64,000 bases of DNA from a virus. This document shows positions 36,528 to 64,000 of the stretch, one piece after another. The notes beneath the pieces are model-generated. The model had not been told where the DNA came from. It made no database searches and saw nothing but the letters and a program-made list of their open reading frames with translations. A program made the position numbers and the translations under genes. Position 1 is the stretch's first letter, and every line of letters begins with the position of its first letter. The DNA is taken from IMG/VR virus record IMGVR_UViG_3300044712_002690, positions 114,985 to 178,984 of that record. The stretch is one strand, 5' to 3'.

Positions 36528-36965
36528 CTACCTTCCTCCCTTCCTTCTATCGTTGACCCAAACAAGTGTTCCAGACTCATCAATTTCTACAGGTATAAGT
36601 AAATGATCGGATTCATATTTTCTATTTAAATGATTAATAGCTTCTTCTTGTGTTGGAAAACATGTTACAAGTTTACAAATGTTATGTTGAAGAAGTTTAA
36701 GCAGTCGTTGTAGTTGATCCGTTTTTTGACAGATAACTAAATCAAAGTTATGTTTTTGTGCGTGGGAATAGAAGTTAAGAAAGAGACCTAAAACAGAAGA
36801 TGATACATCCTTTACATTTTCCAAATTAATAACTAAAGGAATATCATAGTTGAAGTTAATCTTATTTAAATTGTTAGATAAATGACAAGAAAATTCAAAG
36901 GTTAAGTGTGAAGGAAGTATTTTAAATACTTTTATCTCCGGAGTAGATGAGGGCCTGAATGACAT
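36528..36965 (-). CDS. STAS domain protein (anti-sigma antagonist-like)
   Basis: LVINLENVKDVSSSVLGLF...FPTQEEAI. Confidence 0.8.
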   Translation of the reverse strand: MSFRPSSTPEIKVFKILPSHLTFEFSCHLSNNLNKINFNYDIPLVINLENVKDVSSSVLGLFLNFYSHAQKHNFDLVICQKTDQLQRLLKLLQHNICKLVTCFPTQEEAINHLNRKYESDHLLIPVEIDESGTLVWVNDRRKGGR

Positions 36966-36969
36966 AATA

Positions 36970-37287
36970 TTACACCATGCTTCTAATATTAAAGAGTTTA
37001 GTTAATTTGGTGTATTTCAGTGTGTCAAATATATCTTGATGCATATTGTCTAATGATATTAGTAGGTTTTTTCTATTTAAAGAAGTACGAATTGAAATAA
37101 GAAGTGCTAAACCAGAAGAATCAATTTTATTGACTTTTCCTAAATCTATTACTACATCCTTATCAATTTCTGGTATTCTGTTTTCCAAAAGAGATTTAAT
37201 TCTAAAAACATTCCCTATAGTTAAATCAATAAGGATAGCAATATTAATCTGATCTTCATCAGATTTAAATGTAATATAGTTATTCAA
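36970..37287 (-). CDS. STAS domain protein (anti-sigma antagonist-like)
   Basis: VVIDLGKVNKIDSSGLALLI...LKYTKLTKLF. Confidence 0.9.
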   Translation of the reverse strand: MNNYITFKSDEDQINIAILIDLTIGNVFRIKSLLENRIPEIDKDVVIDLGKVNKIDSSGLALLISIRTSLNRKNLLISLDNMHQDIFDTLKYTKLTKLFNIRSMV

Positions 37288-37576
37288 TGTTAAATATCCT
37301 GTCGAATGAAGATAGTTTTAAGATATCTAGTATATGTTTGCTTGGTTGTATTGTTAATGTAAGATTCTTTTTAGTTAACTCTTTCTGAGCTGTTACTAGT
37401 AATCCTAAACCACTAGAATCCATATAATCTGTTTTAGTTAAATCGAGCAGGATATTTTTATCGGCTAGTTCAATTTCATGTAAAAGATATGTTTTCATTT
37501 TTCTAATAGATACAAGATCTATGTTCTGATAAACACAGATAATGATCTTGTCGTCTTCAATGAACTTAGTAATCAT
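37280..37576 (-). CDS. STAS domain protein (anti-sigma antagonist-like)
   Basis: ILLDLTKTDYMDSSGLGLLV...LKLSSFDRIF. Confidence 0.9.
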   Translation of the reverse strand: MITKFIEDDKIIICVYQNIDLVSIRKMKTYLLHEIELADKNILLDLTKTDYMDSSGLGLLVTAQKELTKKNLTLTIQPSKHILDILKLSSFDRIFNIE

Positions 37577-37772
37577 GTTTTCTCTTTTACAGATAGTAAT
37601 GAAATATGAGCCGCTGTCATCTCAACATACTTATAGGCTTCTAAATCTTTATTGATTTTATCTACTGTTTTTTGTAAATACCACTCAATGTCATTTCTGA
37701 CACTGGGTGGTATTTCTTTTGTCTCAATATTGCACTTAATATCTATTGTAGCTGCAATTTCAAGTTTATTCA

Positions 37773-38108
37773 TTAGTCTGCTCGTTTAAAGTTTTTCTTT
37801 TCAAACTTCTCACTAGGACAAGCATACGTTTTCTTAGACTCTACATCTTGATAAACAACTAGAATATCAGAAGTAATAACTTGTGTTATTCCTTTTGTTA
37901 CTGCTATTACTGCGCCATCTTTATGAAGGAAGAGATCAAGAATCTCTCCTGTTTCTGTATGTTCTGCTTGACCTTTACGTTGATACTCATGAGCAAATTC
38001 ATCTTTGATTTTAAGTACGTGAAGAACTTCACCCATCATTATGTAGTAGTTGTCTTTGTCGTCACGATACATTCCACCAGCAAAAATATCCATAGCAATC
38101 TCCTTCAT
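37773..38108 (-). CDS. DUF1653-like SH3-fold protein
   Basis: GGMYR...Y...AEHTETGE...VVYQD...ACP..KF. Confidence 0.55.
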   Translation of the reverse strand: MKEIAMDIFAGGMYRDDKDNYYIMMGEVLHVLKIKDEFAHEYQRKGQAEHTETGEILDLFLHKDGAVIAVTKGITQVITSDILVVYQDVESKKTYACPSEKFEKKNFKRAD

Positions 38109-38150
38109 GTAATTTACTTAAATATTAGGTATTTTAAGTTCTTTTTAAGG

Positions 38151-38178
38151 AAAAAGCCCTAGGGTAACCTAGGGCTTT
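38151..38178 (-). terminator. Intrinsic terminator
   Basis: AAAGCCCTAGG-ttac-CCTAGGGCTTT then TT on the minus strand; perfect 11-bp stem. Confidence 0.85.
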
Positions 38179-38182
38179 GATA

Positions 38183-38545
38183 TTATCTTCTGTAATATTG
38201 AAGAACCTCTTGAGTTCCTTCATATGAATCAACAACAAATATAATTTGAGTTAGACAAAGTAATTCAATAACTTTCTTTATATATGTTGTTAAACTAAGC
38301 AGCACTAACTTACCTCCCCTTCCTCTACAAATCATTGCTGCATCCATTATACACTTAATTGCAGTTGAATCTAATATATGTACTTCTTTAGCATCGAGTA
38401 TGAGATTTTTATATTGACTATTTTCATGCAGTTTTTCTTTTAATGATTTTGATACTTCAGAGACATTATCAATTGTAATCATTTTTTCTTTAAGTTCTAT
38501 CATGAGTGTATGTTCATTTATTTCAATTGAGTCGAGTGGTAACAT
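38183..38545 (-). CDS. STAS domain protein (anti-sigma antagonist-like)
   Basis: LILDAKEVHILDSTAIKCI...GGKLVLLS...VIELLCLTQII. Confidence 0.85.
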   Translation of the reverse strand: MLPLDSIEINEHTLMIELKEKMITIDNVSEVSKSLKEKLHENSQYKNLILDAKEVHILDSTAIKCIMDAAMICRGRGGKLVLLSLTTYIKKVIELLCLTQIIFVVDSYEGTQEVLQYYRR

Positions 38546-43200: not shown

Positions 43201-44163
43201 TCATTCTCCCTCCTTCAATCGCTCTTGTTTAAGAAGTTCTTTAATCTCATTTTGTATTCTAAGAGCGTCATCCATAGTTTCAACATGAACACCACCCACA
43301 GAAAAATGACCCCCTCCTCCAAACTTCTCACAAATTTCCTTAATGTTATGTTCTTTCTCACTAACATTCCAAGGATTGTGACCTACACCAATATGACAAC
43401 CTCGTTTCATCCAACTAAAATCTTTGATATAAACAGCGTACTTAGCTAATGGTTTCCATCTGAAAGCGAAATATCGATCTGTCCGAACATAAGGAGGATC
43501 AGTATAAAAAACTATTCCATCTTCTTCTTTAGCTACAGTAACGAACTTCTTATACCCTTCTTCGATTTTAACTTTACATCTATTATATCGCCAATCAATA
43601 CTCCAAGGAAGATGACCATCAAGCAACTTATAAAGTAGTGAGCGATCTTGCGTAAACATTCGTACTATCTCAGTCATAAAAGAATCATCTGCATTTTCGA
43701 GAAAAGCCATTCTCATTTTAGGTCCGAATGTAGTAGGATCATATACAGTATCCACAGTAGGATAAAGAGCGTAGTCAATCATGTTAACTTCATCCACGAT
43801 CTTCTTAACCATCCCCTCATCCAAAAATTTATCTCTACCGGGTGTGTCAAAGAAAACCTGGGCGCAGCTATAAGCACCCGGAACAAAATTCCCAGGAACG
43901 CCAGCCTCAGCGAATTTTCCTAAGCCACTAAGATGATGATCCCACCAGAAGTTAGCTGTTGGATTATAAGGATAATCCAATACAACTGTGGTTGTATCAG
44001 GTTCCCTAATATCTTTATCCTGCCAGTCTTTCTCATCGTAATTAATAAATTTATATCTAAAGTCAATTTTAGTATTTCCATTATCCACAAATAGCTTTCC
44101 ATATAATATAGCAGAGAAAACTCCATCAATATCATTATGAGTATAGACTTTAATTTTCATCAT
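43201..44163 (-). CDS. DHH/DHHA1 phosphoesterase
   Basis: HNDIDG, VLD, WDHH, GGGHFSVGG. Confidence 0.9.
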   Translation of the reverse strand: MMKIKVYTHNDIDGVFSAILYGKLFVDNGNTKIDFRYKFINYDEKDWQDKDIREPDTTTVVLDYPYNPTANFWWDHHLSGLGKFAEAGVPGNFVPGAYSCAQVFFDTPGRDKFLDEGMVKKIVDEVNMIDYALYPTVDTVYDPTTFGPKMRMAFLENADDSFMTEIVRMFTQDRSLLYKLLDGHLPWSIDWRYNRCKVKIEEGYKKFVTVAKEEDGIVFYTDPPYVRTDRYFAFRWKPLAKYAVYIKDFSWMKRGCHIGVGHNPWNVSEKEHNIKEICEKFGGGGHFSVGGVHVETMDDALRIQNEIKELLKQERLKEGE

Positions 44164-46466: not shown

Positions 46467-47300
46467 CTAGTGTACTAGATAATTTTTATAACCATTAATT
46501 TTACCTAAGTAAGTAGTTGTTACATTTGTTGTTGAAGTACTTATGTCTGTAAAAAAGAATACACAATCTTTATTAGCAAACATATTATACCTCTGACTAT
46601 GATAGGTGTACATATACAATACATACCTATCAAACTTTCCTTCTTGAATCATCTTAGCATTATTAGCTATAATTGTATTGATTGTATTCTTAATCACACC
46701 TGTCTGAACTAATTGCTTAACTCTAATACATGAAATATTTTTAGGCCAATGACAAACAGGAATGTTACTTGTTACAATATTATTACATTCTAACTTATTT
46801 TCAAATGTAGAACAAGTCACTACAGTTGTTTCTAAAAACATTTTATCTTCTCCCCCATCATTCACAATGAAATAAGGAGAAACATTAGTAAAGCTTTCTC
46901 CCTCTACTTCACCAGGAAAATAGGGTCCATTTGTAGCAGAAAGACAAAGCGAAGTAACTAATACAAAAAATATACTAAGTTTAGTTTTCATTTATTGACC
47001 TCTTTCTCTAAGTGTTTCTTCTATAAAAGCATTTCCTTTTTCACAACTTTGTTTTGTTTTAAAGAAATAAATCCAACCTGCCCCTTCACATTTAAGTGTC
47101 ATAAAAGGACCTATTCCTTCAAGCACACCTGTTCTATCGAGAGAGCAACCAAGCCTAATAAGATCTTCAATAGACTTTCCAAATTGTACAACGGTTAGAC
47201 ATCCTGAGTTACCAGCAATCCATTTGTACTCAAGGAAGTCAGCAGCATAACTAATACTTAGAGAAAAAATAATCACGCAAATAACAATTATCTTCTTCAT
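46467..47300 (-). other. Two secreted proteins (46467..46991, 46992..47300)
   Basis: Both begin with Sec-type signal peptides (MKTKLSIFFVLVTSLCLSA; MKKIIVICVIIFSLSISYA). Confidence 0.6.
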
Positions 47301-47349: not shown

Positions 47350-47559
47350 CTAACGAACGTGAGTTGAAATGTATTCTTGTAGCTGACTAGCAGTAGAGAA
47401 TGAAATTGATTCAGGAATACTAATATCAAAACTATTCTCAATAATCATGAATAGTTCTAGGAAATCTAATTCATCTGCTTCCAATTCAACAAAGGAAGTA
47501 GATGGTAGAACTGTACACTTGAAATAGCTTTCCAGTATTTCTTTTAGTTTTGTATCCAT
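47350..47559 (-). CDS. Acyl carrier protein homologue lacking the phosphopantetheine-accepting Ser
   Basis: SFVELEADELDFLELFMIIENSFDISIP aligns by eye with the ACP consensus [29 protein letters not shown]; DSL is DEL (codon GAA). Confidence 0.8.
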   Translation of the reverse strand: MDTKLKEILESYFKCTVLPSTSFVELEADELDFLELFMIIENSFDISIPESISFSTASQLQEYISTHVR

Positions 47560-47573
47560 TAGTTTTAGTTATA

Positions 47574-47903
47574 TCACTTCTTCATATTTTTCTTAACGAT
47601 TCGTTTTTCTCCTCTCTCAAAAACAAATATTTTCTCTTTTAATATCTCATTAACAATTTCAAATTTCAAATCTCTATGTTCCATAGACATAATCTTAACT
47701 GTTTTATATGGATGAGAGATTTCAGAATTAAATTCAACTGTAATACTACCCTGATCAAGATTGTCTTTTTTAACTGTAATGTCCATAGCTAAATCTTCAT
47801 CAGTAAGCATAGGAGCATACATTTTATTAAAGACAGATAATAATCTACCTAAATGTAATACACTTCCAGTAATAGTTAATGTAAACATATACCATCCCAT
47901 CAT
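47574..47903 (-). CDS. Hypothetical protein
   Basis: 109-aa ORF with AGGAGG RBS. Confidence 0.6.
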   Translation of the reverse strand: MMGWYMFTLTITGSVLHLGRLLSVFNKMYAPMLTDEDLAMDITVKKDNLDQGSITVEFNSEISHPYKTVKIMSMEHRDLKFEIVNEILKEKIFVFERGEKRIVKKNMKK

Positions 47904-47923: not shown

Positions 47924-48039
47924 TGGCTGGGTAGGGACTCGAACCCTACTTGATCTAACCAGACTACATTAGATCTGCGCTCTAGGGACCTGAGCAAGGA
48001 TCTGTCGTTTGCATTGGCGTAACCCTACCGCCTCCAGCC
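47924..48039 (-). ncRNA. tRNA-like RNA (116 nt) without a canonical anticodon arm
   Basis: GGCTGG/CCAGCC terminal stem, GGCG/CGCC D-like stem, GATCTAAT/GTTAGATC stem, T-arm GTAGGG-TTCGAGT-CCCTAC; entirely intergenic. Confidence 0.6.
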
Positions 48040-48598: not shown

Positions 48599-50551
48599 AA
48601 CGGTATATCCTCCCCTAATTCTTTATTAAGGTAAGCAATGATTTCGTCTTCCTCTTCTCCTGATGGTACTTCGCTTTGCATTACCTCATCAAATATAATA
48701 TAACTAGGCTCAGAGTTCTCGATATGCTTTCGTACTGTTACAAGATAATCATTTCCTTTATAAGCCATTGCATAACGATGTGTGGTTTCAATTAGAACTA
48801 CCATTTTCTATTCTCCTTATTTCTACAATAGTATTAGCTTCTTCTAAAACTCTGTCAATATTTTTTATACACTGATGACAGATAATCCATGATCCACTAA
48901 AGCTACCATGAACAGTTTTGAAGTGAACCATACCAGGACCTATCTTTTCTCTACAAATAGAACAGGTTCTTCCTCGAATAGACGTATCAAAGAATTCACT
49001 AAACGGTATCACTGATTTGCTCCTTAAGATAAGAATCAATAAAGGAACGAAGATCCTCACCATATAGCCTATTTGCAGAAACAAAGAAAACAGGAATATC
49101 AGGATCAAGACTTTTCGGTCTTTTAAGTTCCTTTACTTGAGTGATTTCCTTTTCAGAAACTAAACCTGAAGAAGCATCTGGATCTTCTAATTCAAAATAC
49201 CAATCTTTGATAGTGTCGAAACTACTGCTAACATCTTTAAAGAAGTCTTTAGCATCTTTCCAACCATAAAACTTAATAAGGAGATCAAATGTTTCTTCAC
49301 TATCTATACAATAGAAGCACTTAGCATAGGTATTGATAGTACTCATTTGATATTGCCCTCCAGTTTAAAGATAATTCTACCATTTTTCCTAATGGTAATT
49401 GATTTATTAAAGTCAGGATTGAAATGAGTATCAGAATACCATTCACACATCTCTTTTTGAGACACTTTATAAGGGTATTTACCTTCAATAATTTCACGGG
49501 CTGTTTCATAATCAAGATCATTTACAAGATATTCAGTTTGAGCTTCAACATAACTGTCATAGACTTCACTATAGTCTGCTGTAACTTCTGTTCCTTCATC
49601 TTCTTCTTTTTCTACTGCTCCTGCTTCTTGTATGAGAATATCCACTAATGCTGTTACTCTTGTAAATGTATCTTTTTCTTCTGTTTCAAGAGCAAACCGA
49701 TTAAGATAATCTACAATCTCGTGAATAGTTTCAACATCGATATTAATTGTTTTCATGATTAAGCTCCTTTTGAAACAAGATTAATTTCAGGAAGTGGGTT
49801 ATTGAGAAATGCTACTACTTGCTTAACAGAACTGAAATAGAATTCAGGAAATTGACCATCAGGTTCTTTCTTATCCTCAAATCCTTTAACAACTGCTACC
49901 GTCCAAGTAGCTCCGTTAGAATGAGGACAACGATAAGCAATCCAAAACTTGACGTCCTGACTTTCCATCTCACAGATACTCATCGAATCATATGTTGGAC
50001 CAACACAAGGACAGTTGTTCTTAAAAAACACATAGTTGTTAATCAAATCAACATTAAGAGATGATTTAAGGTTCTTAATGATTGGAATAAACTTATTGGT
50101 TCTATTAAGAAGGCTACTATCTGTGCAAAACCAATCCCACCATCCTGCATTGCAAGCAGTACGAACATCCATCCTAGCATTATGACTAGAACGGAATGCT
50201 CCTTCTTCGTACTTCATAAGCCATTCTGCAATGTTAATCCTGTCTGCCATTTTGTAGCCTCCAAATCTTTATTTTTTGAATTCGATCAAGAAGACAAAAT
50301 CTAAATTCTCTTCACCACCCCCTCTTCCTTTTTTTCAAGAGTGAGTATTTACAGCGAATTTAGAGTAGTTGTACAGTATCAACAGAATAAATTGGGATAC
50401 CATCTGAATCTTTTAACCAGTCAGTATCTTCAATTATATCCTGTTGATGTGTAGTAAAATAATTCATTACCTCTTCTAAACTTTTACTAGCAATAAAAGG
50501 ACGGTAGTATCCGTCCTTATCAACAAGTTGTAAAATATAAATGTTACTCAT
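48595..50551 (-). other. Run of hypothetical genes (48595..48804, 48788..~49000, 48999..49346, 49343..49756, 49759..50250, 50360..50551)
   Basis: Co-directional ORFs; 49343..49756 is very acidic; 49759..50250 has GWWDWFC...YVFFKNNCP. Confidence 0.6.
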
Positions 50552-52230
50552 ACTTGTCTCCTTAATACTTGCTTACCATGATCTTTTATAACTTTCATAA
50601 TGTCTTTATACAAAAGATTAGGTAAACGAGAAAGCTGGTCATTATTATATTTCAAATAATAATCAACACAATCTTTAACATTACTCCCACCACTAGAAGA
50701 AAATTCAAGATAAAGTATCTTGACTCCATAGCTCCTAGCTTTCAAGAAAGCTTTTCTTGCTTCCTCAGTATTGTCAGGATGACCATCAGTAACAACTACA
50801 ATAAATTTGTCTCCATCCTGTTTAAGCAGATCAGGTAGCTCAAGATTAAGTGCTCCTGCTGTAGGAGTACCGCCTTGGTGATGAACCAATTGCTCTAATC
50901 TATTGAAGTGACCAATCTTATCATCCCAATCTCTTGCTACTTGACATCTATCAGTAAAGTACATAATCTTAGCTTTTACATTATTCTTTACACTACAAGC
51001 CTGATCAATTACAACTGACGTTTGGAGAACTTTATTCATTTGTGCTTTAGTCATTGATCCTGACTTATCAAGCAGAACAAGAACCCGAAGACCCTCAGCC
51101 AAACTTCTTTTAGTAGATTGATATACTCCTCTATCCTTACCTCTGAGTTTTCCTTTATAAAGGAACTCAGGATCAATCTCTCCTTCCTCTACTTCAGTTC
51201 TAACTACTTGCCTAGGTGCTCGCCACCCACCAGCAAATAGTTTGCTAAAGGCTTGAACGGATGAACGATAAGTTTTCAGTATCTCGTTTCGATAGGTAAT
51301 GTTCATTGAAGGTCTACTAATATCTTCTTTAACAGGAATACAATGTCCACCTGCTAAAGCTTTTTGAAGTTTATCTTTAAAATCTTCTCCAAGAAGAACT
51401 TCAGTACCTTCAAGCTCTTCCATATAAGGAGTAGACACAAGAGTTCCTTCTCCTTCAATAGGATTACCATCACCAGCAACTTTTTGTGCTTTCATTGCTT
51501 CTTCTTGAGCTTTCATTTGTTCAGTAATTTCTTTTACTTCCTCTGGGAACAACTGTTTAAGAACATTTACTACCTCAATCGTAATACCAATAGTATGCTC
51601 TGGACTAGAGAAGTTTCCTTTATACTTCGCTATAATAGGCAGTAAATGATTAGCAAAAATTGATTCCAGTTCAGTAGAAAGATCAAGCCTAACATCTATC
51701 AAAGAAAGCTGTGAACGGAAAAGCAATTTATTCACATCAGTCTTACCAATACCTAATTGAGAAAAAATCAGCCTCCTAAATTCTTTAAAGGATAAAGGAA
51801 GTAATTGAGATAAAATCTCATGGTGTTGTTTTTCAAGATGCTTTTCTATTCTTATATCTTCGAATAGATTAAGAACATTTTTAGTGAAAGGATCTCCTTT
51901 ACACTTAAACTGGAATTCAGTTAACTGAACGTTAGAATAAGTGTAAAGGATATGGGCTACCTCGTGCGCAGCAAACATCTTTATTTTCTGAAAGAATTCA
52001 AAAGACATATTCTTGATTAGAGGAAGATAAATAGTATATGTTCCTCTAACCTCTTTAAGATTCTTTTCATCATAAGGATGAAACTGCGTACAAGGCCAAT
52101 GACCCAATTCAATTTTAGTTGAACGCAAAAGGTGACCGGGAAGCACAGATGAGACAATAAAAGAAACTACATCTACAATTTCTTCTTCTCTAGTATATTT
52201 CAATTTATTTTTTCTCATTTGCTTCCTCAC
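50548..52230 (-). CDS. vWA-domain protein with N-terminal HExxH motif (MoxR partner)
   Basis: AAHEVAH; MIDAS DKSGS, GGTPT, VVTDG. Confidence 0.9.
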   Translation of the reverse strand: MRKQMRKNKLKYTREEEIVDVVSFIVSSVLPGHLLRSTKIELGHWPCTQFHPYDEKNLKEVRGTYTIYLPLIKNMSFEFFQKIKMFAAHEVAHILYTYSNVQLTEFQFKCKGDPFTKNVLNLFEDIRIEKHLEKQHHEILSQLLPLSFKEFRRLIFSQLGIGKTDVNKLLFRSQLSLIDVRLDLSTELESIFANHLLPIIAKYKGNFSSPEHTIGITIEVVNVLKQLFPEEVKEITEQMKAQEEAMKAQKVAGDGNPIEGEGTLVSTPYMEELEGTEVLLGEDFKDKLQKALAGGHCIPVKEDISRPSMNITYRNEILKTYRSSVQAFSKLFAGGWRAPRQVVRTEVEEGEIDPEFLYKGKLRGKDRGVYQSTKRSLAEGLRVLVLLDKSGSMTKAQMNKVLQTSVVIDQACSVKNNVKAKIMYFTDRCQVARDWDDKIGHFNRLEQLVHHQGGTPTAGALNLELPDLLKQDGDKFIVVVTDGHPDNTEEARKAFLKARSYGVKILYLEFSSSGGSNVKDCVDYYLKYNNDQLSRLPNLLYKDIMKVIKDHGKQVLRRQV

Positions 52231-53192
52231 TTAATAAATTCTTCTTCAGTAACTCCTTCTTTATCTTCTACTCGATCTTCAAGATAAGGAGCAACCTCCT
52301 CCAACATGCCTTGCAGCTTATCAGTTACCAAGCAAGTTAAAGTAGTAACAAAGATACTTGTCTCTTGAGGAGACAGTAGCTTCGATACTTTGTCTATAAC
52401 TGCTTTTGGAGTATCGTCTTTGAAAGTCCAGACAGAAGATGAAGCACCAACATTCTTTTTAACAGCTTGAATACTTTTAGCTTCGTCTTCGGGAAGTCTA
52501 CTCAGGTAACCAATTTTAAATGCTTCCTCTAGACTCAATCCTACCCTAACCATTCGAGCGATAGAAATAAGACGTCGAGTAGAAGGAAGTATCGAATAGT
52601 TTCCTTTTCTAATAATTTTAGCAGAATCTAGAAGAGCTTTTGCATCCTCTTTAGTAAGCCCCTCTTCAATAAGAATGTCTGCCTCACGCTTAGTAAAGTT
52701 AAAGTGAACGAATTCAAAACGGTCAATAGATGCTAAGTCAAGTGCATTAGTATTATATTCAACCGAACCCTGCATGTCAGAGTTACCAGTAGCTATAATC
52801 CTAAAGTCCCCGCTAGCAGTAATAACTTCGTTAGTAGCTTCAACAAGAAGTTCTCCTGATTCAAGAACCTCATGAAGTTTAGAAGCTACATCCTCACTAA
52901 CCCTATCAAATTCATCAAGGATAAGAACTTTATTTTCCCTCATTGCTTTAACAAGAGGTCCATAAATGAATTTGGTTTGTTCATCAATCAATTCAAAGTG
53001 ACCGATTAGGTTAGAAGGTTTCATGTCATTAGAACATGAACAAAGAACGTAGTTACCAGGACCAGTCATAATACGAGCAAACGTAGTCTTACCACACCCA
53101 GCAGGGCCAAGCATATAAATGTTAAGTCCTGCCGAATAAAGTTTACGTGCAAGCGCATGTTCCTCTGTTTCATAATACTTATGCTCTTTCAT
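52227..53192 (-). CDS. MoxR-family AAA+ ATPase (CbbQ/NirQ/NorQ-like)
   Basis: Walker A GPAGCGKT, Walker B LILDEFDR, FRIIATGN, LDLASIDRF. Confidence 0.92.
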   Translation of the reverse strand: MKEHKYYETEEHALARKLYSAGLNIYMLGPAGCGKTTFARIMTGPGNYVLCSCSNDMKPSNLIGHFELIDEQTKFIYGPLVKAMRENKVLILDEFDRVSEDVASKLHEVLESGELLVEATNEVITASGDFRIIATGNSDMQGSVEYNTNALDLASIDRFEFVHFNFTKREADILIEEGLTKEDAKALLDSAKIIRKGNYSILPSTRRLISIARMVRVGLSLEEAFKIGYLSRLPEDEAKSIQAVKKNVGASSSVWTFKDDTPKAVIDKVSKLLSPQETSIFVTTLTCLVTDKLQGMLEEVAPYLEDRVEDKEGVTEEEFIK

Positions 53193-58356: not shown

Positions 58357-59496
58357 TTAATCTCCACCAGCTTTAAAGTTATAGATAGGCTTCATAACAA
58401 ACTCAATATCAACTGTATCCTGGATAGCAGAGATAATAAGTTCCTTATCTTTATATACCATAGGAGATTCATCTAATGTATCTTGATTAACACAAGAGGT
58501 ATAAATCCCATCCATAGACTTTTGAAAGTCTTCTAATACTATAACTTCTTTAGCTTTCTTTCTAGATAGAATACGACCTGCACCATGAGGAGCAGAATAA
58601 TTCCAATCTTTATTTCCTTTACCAGTTCCGATAATAACACCGTCACGCATGTTAAGGGGAATAATAACTCTTTCTCCCTCTTGTGCAGAAATAGCTCCTT
58701 TACGAATGATATTATCTTTTCCAATATAATTATGAACACATTCAATTGCAGGTGCAATAGATTTTATATTGAAGAACTTAGTAAGAATAGTACGTAGGAT
58801 CATATCTCGATTACGTTCAGCATACCATTGAGCAACACGCATGCTATTAAGATATTCGGTACCTCCATTATTAAGAGGTAGGAATTCAAGATTCTTATAA
58901 GCGTCTCCAATGAACATTTCATTCATTAGCGCCTTAGCTTTTTTTTGATAGTAATCACATACTTTCAATCCGAAGTTACGTGAACCAGTATGGATAACCA
59001 ACCAATTTTGTCCCTCATGATGATCAATCTCAATAAAGTGATTACCTCCACCAAGAGTTCCAAGCGACCTTTCGGCAAGGCCAGGAGTTTGTTCTACTCT
59101 ATTCGCTACTTGAATAACTTTACCTATTCCATATTCATACCCACTATTCTTTAAATACTCTTTTAACTCTTTCTCATTAGCATGAGTAGCGAACCCAGCA
59201 GGAATATTATTCTTAATAAACTCATCGAACTTCTCAAGATTAGTTTCAGGAATAGGATACATTAGCATACCACACCCAATATCAACTCCTACAATATTAG
59301 GTATGACATAGTTATTGAGAGTCATAGTAAAACCAATAACAGAACCTTTACCTGCATGAGTATCAGGCATAATACGAATACTAGTATTAGCAAAGGCAGG
59401 ATGATTCAAGAAGGAATAAATTTGTGAAACAGTTTCAGGATCAATTACATCTATGTAAACTTTAGCTACATTATACTTACCTTTGTATACTAGCAT
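58357..59496 (-). CDS. rtcB: RtcB RNA ligase
   Basis: MPDTHAGKG, VGVDIGCG, LGTLGGGNHFIE, HTGSR, HNY, HGAGR, DESP..YK. Confidence 0.95.
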   Translation of the reverse strand: MLVYKGKYNVAKVYIDVIDPETVSQIYSFLNHPAFANTSIRIMPDTHAGKGSVIGFTMTLNNYVIPNIVGVDIGCGMLMYPIPETNLEKFDEFIKNNIPAGFATHANEKELKEYLKNSGYEYGIGKVIQVANRVEQTPGLAERSLGTLGGGNHFIEIDHHEGQNWLVIHTGSRNFGLKVCDYYQKKAKALMNEMFIGDAYKNLEFLPLNNGGTEYLNSMRVAQWYAERNRDMILRTILTKFFNIKSIAPAIECVHNYIGKDNIIRKGAISAQEGERVIIPLNMRDGVIIGTGKGNKDWNYSAPHGAGRILSRKKAKEVIVLEDFQKSMDGIYTSCVNQDTLDESPMVYKDKELIISAIQDTVDIEFVMKPIYNFKAGGD

Positions 59497-61454: not shown

Positions 61455-63305
61455 CTAGTTAGATTCTCCATCACGTTCACTGTCGTCACTTGGAACAGGG
61501 TCAACTTCTTCTCCGCACTGTTGCTCCACTGTATTATAATAGATAGGAGCACTACTGAAAGTAGCAGTAAACCTAGTTGTACTAGTGTCTTGAGACCAAG
61601 GTGGAGGAGTAGATACTCGTCCTAGCCTCAATGACTCTAAGACTCCTCTTGGTTCCCTTTCGCTGCTTTGATTTGAGAAATAACTTCTTACATCCATGGG
61701 ACAATCAGAAGGTAAAGAACGTAGACGAGAACGAATAGCTCTTTTTATATCCGAGATAATTTGTTCTACTTGACTACTTTCTAATCGACCCATCCTAAAG
61801 GCAAAAGGCAATCCAGCAAGGAGAAGGTATTGTGGATTACCTCCTTGAGGATAAGGAGTAGCAGAGAATCCTCTAATGTCCAAACCACAACAAACTAATC
61901 CTCTCTGTTCAGCAAGACCAAAGAACCTAACTGGTACGCTACGACGAGTTGTCCGAATACTTCTAACTGCTTCTGTAAGTCTAATCCTTATAACAGGTTC
62001 CCAATCATCACTAAACTGTATGTTAAAGTTAGGTGGAAGATTAGGAGCTGCCTTTTTAACTTTGGGGACAGTCTTCTTAAACTTTTTGTTGTCCCAATAA
62101 GAAGCAATGTTATACTTATACGGATCTTGTTCTTTAAACTTCTTGATATAATCAAGATAGTAAGAAGCTTCGCCTTCAGTTAAACCTACTTGCATTAATT
62201 CTTCTACACTAGGTTCGCCAGTAGGATTAACCCAGAAGCTATGTCTCTTGAAATACAACTGCATGATTTGTTGAGCAAGCTTCATCGTTACAAGAGTCAT
62301 TGTAGGGTGACCAAAGATTGCTGACGGGGGAGTACGATATTCAAAGCCATGAGGCTGAGTACGATACTGACCCAGTCGACAATATTGACCACGCGCTTCT
62401 CCACTAAGCTTTAGCGTAGGTTGACCAATAAAGTAATCGAAAAGAGTAATAAGATTTTTAGGAGGATCAATAGGATGACCAACTCCTATATGGATATGAC
62501 CACCAAGAGGAAAATATCTACCTCCTACACTAAAGACATCCTCTTTAGGAACCATACTAGAAAATATACTGCGCATATTTTCTACAAATTGCTTAGGGGA
62601 GTCAGCAGGATCAGGTCTCAGTTCTACCTGATGTCCTGAACCATCTACCCCAAGCTTTTCGTCCCTAAAGTAAGCAGAGACATCTCCATTGTCTTCGTCA
62701 CTACGAAGATCAACCGCGCAACCATTAGCCATCAATTCAAACTCAGGATCTGCTCCAAGAGTAATTTCAGGTATCTCATAATGTTCATTTACCGTATTTA
62801 CTTCTTCAAGCAATCCTTGGCTATGGAGAGCTTCAATTATCTTCCAGAGAAGGTCTACGCCTAAAAGCGTATGTGTTAGATCGCAGACATACAATACATT
62901 GATGTCAGGAAGAAGATAACCAATGTGCTTACCATTCATATCTGTTAGATGCAACAATTCAGAAGGAGCATCGTCAGACTTTTCTATCTCACAACGACTG
63001 AATTGTGCATAACCTCGATCCCTATAACGTTCAGGACGATGTTTATCTCCTGCATCCTCTAGATTAAAAGACAACTTTAATTGTCTTTCTTTTTTAACAG
63101 CAATCACTTCCTCATTAGTGCAGTTAATAAATAAAGCATTTGTCCAGTTATAACCATCGAACCAAATTTGGCAATGGTTATTAGCTGAGGAGAAATACTT
63201 TTTAGCTTCAGGATATTTTGAAACAAAGAGGGGAAGGTATTCCCTCCCCTCTTGTTCCCGGTCCTGCATGCTTCGAAGGTCTATGTCAGACATTTGTACA
63301 TGCAT
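61455..63305 (-). CDS. phiEco32-like COOH-NH2 ligase type 2
   Basis: LGADPEFEL, LGVDG..QVELRP, LGGHIHIG, FEYRTPPS. Confidence 0.85.
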   Translation of the reverse strand: MHVQMSDIDLRSMQDREQEGREYLPLFVSKYPEAKKYFSSANNHCQIWFDGYNWTNALFINCTNEEVIAVKKERQLKLSFNLEDAGDKHRPERYRDRGYAQFSRCEIEKSDDAPSELLHLTDMNGKHIGYLLPDINVLYVCDLTHTLLGVDLLWKIIEALHSQGLLEEVNTVNEHYEIPEITLGADPEFELMANGCAVDLRSDEDNGDVSAYFRDEKLGVDGSGHQVELRPDPADSPKQFVENMRSIFSSMVPKEDVFSVGGRYFPLGGHIHIGVGHPIDPPKNLITLFDYFIGQPTLKLSGEARGQYCRLGQYRTQPHGFEYRTPPSAIFGHPTMTLVTMKLAQQIMQLYFKRHSFWVNPTGEPSVEELMQVGLTEGEASYYLDYIKKFKEQDPYKYNIASYWDNKKFKKTVPKVKKAAPNLPPNFNIQFSDDWEPVIRIRLTEAVRSIRTTRRSVPVRFFGLAEQRGLVCCGLDIRGFSATPYPQGGNPQYLLLAGLPFAFRMGRLESSQVEQIISDIKRAIRSRLRSLPSDCPMDVRSYFSNQSSEREPRGVLESLRLGRVSTPPPWSQDTSTTRFTATFSSAPIYYNTVEQQCGEEVDPVPSDDSERDGESN

Positions 63306-63313
63306 ACAGCCTC

Positions 63314-64000
63314 CTAATACGAAATACCTTGTCTAGCACGAACAACCAGAGCAGCGATAATATCGCTATTTTCTTCAGGAGAAAGTGCGCCAGTCCGGAA
63401 AGCATAAGGCAGACCGACGACGACAGTTTCATCATTGTCGCCATGATTCGGATGACCAACCGTCTCGAAGTTAGTTACCGAGATACCAGCGACAACACGA
63501 CCGCGTTTAGCAGCCAAGCCGTAGAGAAGGAAACGATACGAGTCACGAGCTTTAAGATCTTTAATCGCTGCCTTCACTTGAGCTTTAATTTCTTCACTCC
63601 AGTCATCGCTAAAGTCAACTCGAATAGGTTCGTCAGGAACAGCAGCCATTTCTGCTTCTTTGCTAAACCGTTCGGGTACCCAAGCGGCACAGACATTCTC
63701 GGAAGAATGAACCGAACGGAACGAACGAACGTACTCGACATAGAAGGTAGCTTCCTCAGCAGTCAGACCCAAGGCAATCAGATCAGCTTGATTAGCAGAC
63801 CCTTTTTCCTTGATAGTAAATTCTTCCTCGTCAATATACTTTTTCATGACAAGGTCAAGAATTTTATAAGTCAGATAAGTCATCTGAGGATTGCTGAACG
63901 TACCCGACGACGGCGTACGGTATTCGAAGCCATGGGGTTGACCACGATGCGCGCTCAACCGACCATAATCTCCACGAGCAGTACCATTCATTTTCATGCT
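63314..64000 (-). CDS. Second COOH-NH2 ligase type 2 paralogue (5'-truncated by window edge)
   Basis: ARGDYGRL...QPHGFEYRTPSS...FSDDW...YGLAAKRG...GLPYAFR matches the C-terminal half of 61455..63305; frame open to the window end. Confidence 0.85.
   Translation of the reverse strand, partial: SMKMNGTARGDYGRLSAHRGQPHGFEYRTPSSGTFSNPQMTYLTYKILDLVMKKYIDEEEFTIKEKGSANQADLIALGLTAEEATFYVEYVRSFRSVHSSENVCAAWVPERFSKEAEMAAVPDEPIRVDFSDDWSEEIKAQVKAAIKDLKARDSYRFLLYGLAAKRGRVVAGISVTNFETVGHPNHGDNDETVVVGLPYAFRTGALSPEENSDIIAALVVRARQGISY

Follow-up and report, generated by a model that had tools for sequence, protein, structure and literature searches.

Phage-encoded acyl carrier proteins (ACPs) are treated in published work as carriers or as metabolic genes. 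Docking of a phage ACP on the FabZ of the host has been predicted in a preprint (10.64898/2026.03.01.708874), and islands in Flavobacterium jumbophages have been described that combine secreted-protein and lipoprotein genes with duplicated ACPs and a phosphohydrolase (10.64898/2026.04.22.720137). In the E. coli protein, AcpP, the carboxylates D35, D38, E41 and E47 contact AcpS (bioRxiv 10.1101/2025.01.28.635281), a screen for lost SpoT binding hit L42 and M44 (PMC3340395), and the S36T variant is not modifiable, is non-functional and does not support growth (PMC3340395). The ACP family is thus a known one; natural Ser-to-Glu or Ser-to-Asp ACPs in phages, an acid-substituted and non-carrier form of that family, were not described in any source found by full-text literature searches.

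We analysed a 64-kb stretch of viral DNA (the window), which is the final part of an IMG/VR virus record of 178,984 bp with a GC content of ~31%. IMG/VR classes the record as a 'provirus' cut from a 239-kb contig; the last genes in the window are still phage-like despite this class. The record encodes a portal protein, a large terminase, a family A DNA polymerase, an SbcC-like protein, RtcB and ParB. Relatives of the phage were found neither in IMG/VR, searched with its VWA protein and its DNA polymerase, nor in INPHARED, searched with its DNA and, judged from its sequence, it is a novel large phage. The record is ~76% complete, and within it we found no matches to a PPTase (ACPS), a ketosynthase or an AMP-binding enzyme. 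The sole PP-binding gene in its 179 kb is the ACP-like gene described here.

An earlier note on this DNA had placed an ACP mimic at the interval given for the coding sequence in Table 1. The open reading frame there is real, and it lies on the minus strand, which the note did not mention, within a long, densely packed series of minus-strand genes. The frame is closed by a TAA that lies 12 nt before the ATG, which leaves Met1 as the sole possible start. The predicted protein has a pI of 4.1, with 13 Asp/Glu against 4 Lys/Arg, lacks a signal peptide, and contains nine serines outside the site discussed below. No Shine-Dalgarno motif was found in the spacer before its ATG; ~44-60% of the phage's genes have such a motif, many of them AGGA or GGAG ~8-12 nt upstream. 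Because the spacer is so short and lacks this motif, translation of the ACP-like gene is probably coupled to that of the upstream gene, and the two genes are probably on the same transcript. Searches with Pfam and PHROG profiles and model comparison assigned the upstream 109-aa protein to no known family; in its Atlas model it is similar to ferredoxin-like phage proteins of the DUF1281_C type. The ACP-like gene is followed by two that encode signal-peptide proteins. A tRNA-like stretch immediately upstream of the gene pair, at 47924-48039 (-), contains no tRNA or tmRNA according to ARAGORN and nothing significant in Rfam (best match E 0.65). Use of an alternative genetic code was rejected, since every neighbouring gene reads open in table 11.

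Table 1. The ACP-like gene, its substituted site and its immediate flanks, in window positions
Feature	Position	Strand	Basis
Downstream gene, 102 aa, N-terminal signal-peptide-like segment, own GGGGGA site	46992..47300	-	
Coding sequence of the predicted ACP-fold protein, 69 aa	47350..47559	-	ORF call, homology, AF2 model
Asp29 and helix II (30-44), the ACP 'recognition helix'	47428..47475	-	alignment, model
Codon GAA, Glu30, at the phosphopantetheine-Ser position (E. coli Ser36)	47470..47472	-	sequence, alignments, model
Spacer, 14 nt, from the upstream gene's stop to the ATG of the ACP-like gene	47560..47573	-	
Upstream gene, 109 aa, strong ribosome-binding site AAGGAGG	47574..47903	-	

Profile, structure and model comparisons bear on the relationship of the protein. 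Pfam PF00550 (PP-binding) matches at 21.2 bits (E 3.5e-4), marginally above its cut-off of 20.8, and the PHROG hit, at E 6e-7, is to family 5934, 'acyl carrier protein'. Scores from the NCBIfam ACP models, at 28-34 bits, fall under their cut-offs (TIGR00517, 33 against 70.45; NF002150, 34 against 66). Matches to more than 50 solved ACPs range from E 8e-5 to 0.05, the best of them lying at E 8e-5 to 1e-3. An AF2 model, run with a 10-sequence alignment, has a mean pLDDT of 92.3 and a pTM of 0.75, with helices at residues 3-13, 30-44 and 57-67. Its top Foldseek matches in the PDB are all ACPs (TM 0.75-0.88, rmsd 1.1-2.7 A), and the best viral models matched in the structure search are phage 'carrier domain' or ACP proteins. 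Relative to AcpP, loop I is shorter by three residues and the helix III region by two, and no helix III forms in the model. We conclude that this is a real phage gene for an ACP homologue with a predicted ACP fold. The by-eye match to bacterial ACP on which the note had relied is therefore upheld by PHROG, solved ACPs and AF2/Foldseek, and narrowly by Pfam, and the structure prediction that it had proposed as a check returned the expected fold.

The note had also reported that the serine of the DSL motif is replaced by Glu, and the codon is indeed GAA. HMMER sets the D-E-L of the protein on the D-S-L of solved ACPs, and every alignment places Glu30 on the serine; when nine Ser-type ACPs are aligned with the query, column 30 has Ser in 9/9 of them and Glu in the query. 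The same alignment has D29, L31, D32, E35, M38, E41 and F44 invariant. Residues D29, D32, E35 and E41 correspond to E. coli D35, D38, E41 and E47, and L36 and M38 to L42 and M44, which are the AcpS-contacting carboxylates and the SpoT-screen positions cited above. The protein has kept the acidic and hydrophobic side of helix II by which ACPs dock on their clients. In the AF2 model, helix II begins with Glu30 as its N1 residue and is capped by Asp29. A single-base sequencing error was rejected as the source of the substitution: GAA is two changes from TCA and three from AGY, hence at least two from any Ser codon, and one miscalled base cannot explain Glu30. Since the serine is absent, and since even S36T ACP is unmodifiable, loading of phosphopantetheine at the canonical site is predicted to be impossible and canonical carrier function to be excluded in principle, in line with what the note had argued. 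Glu30 may imitate the phosphodiester charge of holo-ACP, or it may stabilise helix II and strengthen the acidic docking patch. Glu and Asp are favoured at helix position N1, so that a bias towards acidic residues need not mean phosphate mimicry. The carboxylate of Glu30 presumably adjoins the known ACP metal site (E30, D35, D38).

Searches for relatives of the window protein returned distant matches. With tblastn against INPHARED there was nothing, even at E 10; among 5.8 billion proteins searched by word index, the query matched none but itself; and no orthologue was found in IMG/VR. An exhaustive phmmer search of 1.84 billion cluster representatives likewise gave only the protein itself below E 1e-10, together with 21 further, distant ACP-type hits at E 2e-9 to 1e-3. 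All of the single-domain hits (P0005, P0007, P0010, P0012 and others) are Ser-type and 36-51% identical to the query. According to the note, homologues that mostly have Ser would have pointed to sequencing error or decay. The nearest relatives are Ser-type, as this would predict, but their sequences are too far from the query for us to count them as orthologues. One of them, P0007, adjoins a T4-like topoisomerase subunit gene and is probably phage-borne. Among the other hits, P0009 has one DEL and one DSL domain, and P0002, a lipoprotein-like protein of 425 aa, has ACP-like repeats with the readings DEL, DES and DEL, all without the serine; its gene (L003:1704-2981) adjoins that of a 357-aa protein also matching PP-binding. 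A tree of 77 Ser-type and non-Ser sequences over 78 columns is too poorly resolved for a count of origins, and the query pairs weakly with a Ser-type protein (SH-aLRT 88). The best tree has 10 Ser-to-acid changes, only two of which are forced by well-supported branches, a pattern that suggests independent origins of the replacement.

We surveyed the residue at the serine site in IMG/VR by scanning for the helix II motif D-x-L-D-x-h-E-h-x-M(-x-h-E), where h is hydrophobic and the codon for x was varied, and by keeping open reading frames with a match of at least 25 bits, across the site, to an ACP HMM made from ten sequences. The survey covers AcpP-like helix II sequences, with CTN, CGN, AGR and ATN codons left out, in a database that is redundant. 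For x = Glu, the shorter motif occurs in 71 stretches, 40 of which are ACP-like at 25 bits or more; two more reach no more than 13.6 bits. Any G-starting codon yields 93 stretches, Asn, Lys, Thr, His, Gln and Pro codons yield 7, and Phe, Leu (TTR), Tyr, Cys and Trp codons yield 11. Among the resulting non-Ser ACP-like proteins, Glu occurs in 36, Asp in 26 and Ala in 21, followed by Gln in 4 and Tyr in 2; Thr, Pro, Phe, Leu, Cys and Trp each occur once, and none of the ACP-like proteins of this survey has Val, Gly, Asn, Lys or His. Clustering at 50% identity leaves 23 Glu, 12 Asp, 2 Ala and 2 Gln clusters, the Ala set being essentially one family that has Gln and Asp members too. The Ser motif occurs in at least 591 IMG/VR stretches, relative to which the acid-type proteins amount to no more than about one tenth. 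We applied the same G-codon pattern to a bacterial sample with one genome per prokaryotic species (at least 120 stretches); the ACP-like proteins among the matches listed have Glu in 58 cases, Asp in 34, Ala in 6, Gly in 1 and Val in none. Across the phage and bacterial ACP-like lineages covered by these surveys, then, Glu/Asp is by far the commonest replacement of the serine. Glu and Asp are two or three base changes from Ser codons, and the one-step neighbours of Ser (Pro, Thr, Ala, Leu, Phe, Tyr, Cys, Trp, Asn, Gly) were seen seldom or never. Because the multi-step replacements are common and the one-step replacements rare, the distribution argues for selection for an acidic side chain rather than neutral loss.

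A 19-member IMG/VR cluster proved to be the Ackermannviridae 'acyl carrier protein', in which the site is Glu in 11 members and Asp in 8, and never Ser. The protein was found by tblastn in 271 INPHARED records, from Salmonella, Klebsiella, Escherichia and Dickeya phages, and its phiMAM1 version has 90 aa and reads D-E-L. Directly before its gene there is always one for a ~740-aa (746-aa) protein that has a VWA domain at its N terminus, as in Salmonella phage Mutine and Serratia phage phiMAM1. This domain scores 31 bits and has a MIDAS-like DISGS motif (L120:6680-8920 (-), L188/L189). Genes for an RNA polymerase ADP-ribosylase, for superinfection exclusion and for a spanin are also present in the region.

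Bacterial Glu/Asp-type proteins differ in architecture. Many have lipoprotein or Sec signals or membrane segments (L209, L206, L230, L191, L303, L200, L244), and others have long N-terminal regions, for example a Nostoc family (L203). Several Glu-type proteins exceed the NCBIfam ACP cut-offs and there is no dedicated NCBIfam model, so that annotation pipelines name such proteins plain ACP. The bacterial Glu/Asp-type proteins look like a family that is seemingly exported and unstudied, and to which NCBIfam would give the name 'acyl carrier protein'.

Gene neighbourhoods of the viral proteins show little in common. In an all-against-all BLAST of the +/-5 kb around 89 non-Ser viral ACPs, families were shared only inside two large groups. 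A Pfam tally of 114 flanking proteins from 28 phage lineages contained no FAS, PKS or PPTase genes; it contained miscellaneous nucleotide-metabolism and repair genes, none of them more than twice. The lack of a shared phage partner gene across the 28 lineages would be expected if the partner is a host protein. Neighbours encoding MazG, HD_4 or VWA proteins are each lineage-specific. In the viral Ala/Gln/Asp family, the ACP-like gene and the end of a gene for a MazG pyrophosphohydrolase overlap (L136:6661-7310). On a 235-kb contig (L077:3949-4811), a Glu-type ACP-like gene overlaps the end of a gene for a 191-aa protein that has a weak SpoT-type HD_4 match (23 bits, below the cut-off).

Several other genes of the window touch on these comparisons. 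An overlapping pair of genes at 50548-53192 (-), 3 kb upstream of the ACP-like gene and on the same strand, encodes a 321-aa MoxR/CbbQ-type AAA_5 ATPase and a protein of 560 aa with a VWA domain at its C terminus; we detected no pairwise similarity between this VWA protein and that of the Ackermannviridae. Four small STAS-like genes with SpoIIAA-like D-S-S-G-L and D-S-T motifs lie at 36528-38545 (-), 9 kb from the ACP-like gene. One STAS domain is known to bind E. coli ACP, and among the ACP entries matched by the window protein is PDB 3NY7, which we take to be E. coli ACP bound to a STAS domain. A gene for a DHH-family phosphoesterase-like protein is found at 43201-44163 (-), 3 kb from the ACP-like gene. 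Further away are an RtcB RNA ligase gene at 58357-59496 (-) (PHROG E 2e-126) and, where the window ends, two genes for phiEco32-like COOH-NH2 ligases, at 61455-63305 (-) and 63314-63997 (-).

We propose tentatively, with a probability of about 0.4, that the window protein is a non-carrier binding module and most likely a decoy for host ACP clients. It would act purely through protein binding, as a non-productive competitor of host ACP on those host proteins that recognise ACP. Candidate clients are AcpS, enzymes of fatty-acid, phospholipid or lipid A synthesis, and SpoT/Rel, and infection would damp or redirect the pathways that these clients serve. Judged by the survey counts, the acidic residue in the first turn of helix II has been selected and is no accident. 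We rank this reading first because the residues that dock AcpS and other clients are kept, because the phage versions are solitary, cytoplasmic and without a conserved phage partner, and because an excess of apo-ACP is toxic in E. coli: Keating, Carey and Cronan are said to have found in 1995 that overproduced apo-ACP strongly inhibits growth. Against it, the gene is an orphan without its own ribosome-binding site, and the deletion in the helix III region could weaken binding to some ACP clients. The earlier note had gone further and described a constitutive holo-like decoy. Its view of a true ACP homologue that is not loadable stands, and the acidic replacement has turned out to be recurrent; a holo-like decoy may be one form of such binding. 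We consider it rather unlikely that Glu/Asp look-alikes, this orphan among them, are as a class widespread, unrecognised phosphomimetic decoys, with the carboxylate standing in for the phosphodiester, that block lipid synthesis, the SpoT stringent response or an ACP-dependent defence. We know of no ACP client enzymes where the exported look-alikes work, and decoy action on cytoplasmic enzymes cannot explain a whole class that includes exported bacterial proteins. Similar phage and bacterial look-alikes may also work by binding other proteins.

Other explanations make different use of the same observations. The protein could be an adaptor or subunit for a phage-encoded protein, with the 109-aa upstream protein or a STAS or VWA/AAA protein as partner. 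The 14-nt gap without a Shine-Dalgarno motif suggests coupled, near-equimolar synthesis with the upstream protein, the Ser-less gene of the Ackermannviridae always follows that of the 746-aa VWA protein, and the window has its own AAA_5 and VWA pair 3 kb upstream on the same strand. There is also a precedent in Plasmodium, where a Ser-less mitochondrial ACP is a structural subunit of the Fe-S cluster machinery. However, no neighbour family is common to the 28 non-Ser lineages, the two VWA proteins share no pairwise similarity, and the 109-aa protein belongs to no known family; we regard a phage-encoded partner as rather doubtful. It is improbable, in our estimate, that the protein is an acidic helical module unrelated to ACP clients, serving in cation binding, in mimicry of an acidic macromolecule or in a chaperone-like role shared with the exported bacterial forms. 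Bacterial Glu/Asp-type domains are common and often lie behind export or TM signals, away from cytoplasmic clients, Glu30 presumably sits beside the ACP metal site, and two signal-peptide protein genes follow the window gene; yet the window protein itself has no signal peptide and keeps the exact enzyme-docking residues.

Those retained residues bear equally on whether the gene is left over from a phage Ser-type ACP, decaying or neutral and of no function today. Such a remnant might well be a single-copy orphan without a ribosome-binding site, with a marginal Pfam score, a shortened helix III region and Ser-type phage or metagenomic ACPs as its nearest relatives. The frame, however, is intact, the model reaches a pLDDT of 92 and all docking residues are retained, and the replacement is the favoured Glu, at least two base changes away, rather than a one-step neighbour of Ser, all of which makes decay clearly improbable. 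Least credible of all, to the point that we give it hardly any weight, is that the protein has remained a carrier and is loaded at some other residue or by other chemistry on Glu30. Nothing favours this directly beyond the presence of nine other serines, whereas PPTases act on the serine at the N terminus of helix II, which is absent here, the phage record has no PPTase or acyl-handling enzyme, and S36T abolishes modification in E. coli. A module that binds ACP clients of the host without being a carrier is the reading that we prefer.

ACP is among the most connected bacterial proteins, and a natural, encoded competitor of it, if this reading is true, would be a new type of host-takeover tool and a ready probe of ACP-client interfaces, themselves antibacterial targets, or a scaffold for inhibitors of them. 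At most about one tenth of motif-bearing phage ACP homologues, all of the Ackermannviridae 'acyl carrier proteins' and many bacterial, including exported, proteins are labelled ACP and are predicted to be unable to carry. Inferences about auxiliary metabolism drawn from such labels (a phage that supplies ACP and modulates lipid synthesis) would then be wrong in kind. Members of the Ackermannviridae infect E. coli and Salmonella, and the question can therefore be tested directly in these hosts.

The described proteins nearest to the window protein each share part of its character. Bacterial type II AcpP (for example E. coli 1T8K/1L0H), especially in its apo form or as S36A/S36T, has the same fold, an acidic helix II, a similar size and pI and ~35% identity; it has Ser and 77-78 aa, in contrast to the Glu and 69 aa of the protein from a phage in which no fatty-acid genes were found. 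Closest in sequence are the Ser-type phage ACPs (PHROG 5934; at least 591 motif matches in IMG/VR), including P0005, P0007, P0010 and P0012 at 40-48% identity, but these keep the serine and could be loaded by a host PPTase, unlike the window protein. The exported or multi-domain bacterial domains (L209, L191, L230, P0002) share the D-[ED]-L-D helix II and the ACP fold, and differ in being cellular and in having lipoprotein or Sec signals, TM segments or tandem repeats. The Flavobacterium jumbophage islands have a layout to which that of the window, with its ACP-like gene, signal-peptide genes and DHH phosphoesterase, is loosely similar. Most alike in the substitution itself is the 'ACP' of Ackermannviridae (Vi01/CBA120/Det7-like), with 90-107 aa, which is also phage-encoded with Glu or Asp at the site, is also solitary in an early or accessory region, and is also named plain ACP in databases. 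It is not an orthologue: the similarity is limited to the generic ACP helix II, the Ackermannviridae protein has a ~45-aa N-terminal extension that the window protein lacks, and its VWA gene is directly upstream rather than 3 kb away. The hosts of the Ackermannviridae are enterobacteria; the genes at the end of the window, being phage genes, gave no clue to the host of the window phage. The window protein thus appears as an independent, orphan example of the acid-substituted form, from an unrelated large phage.
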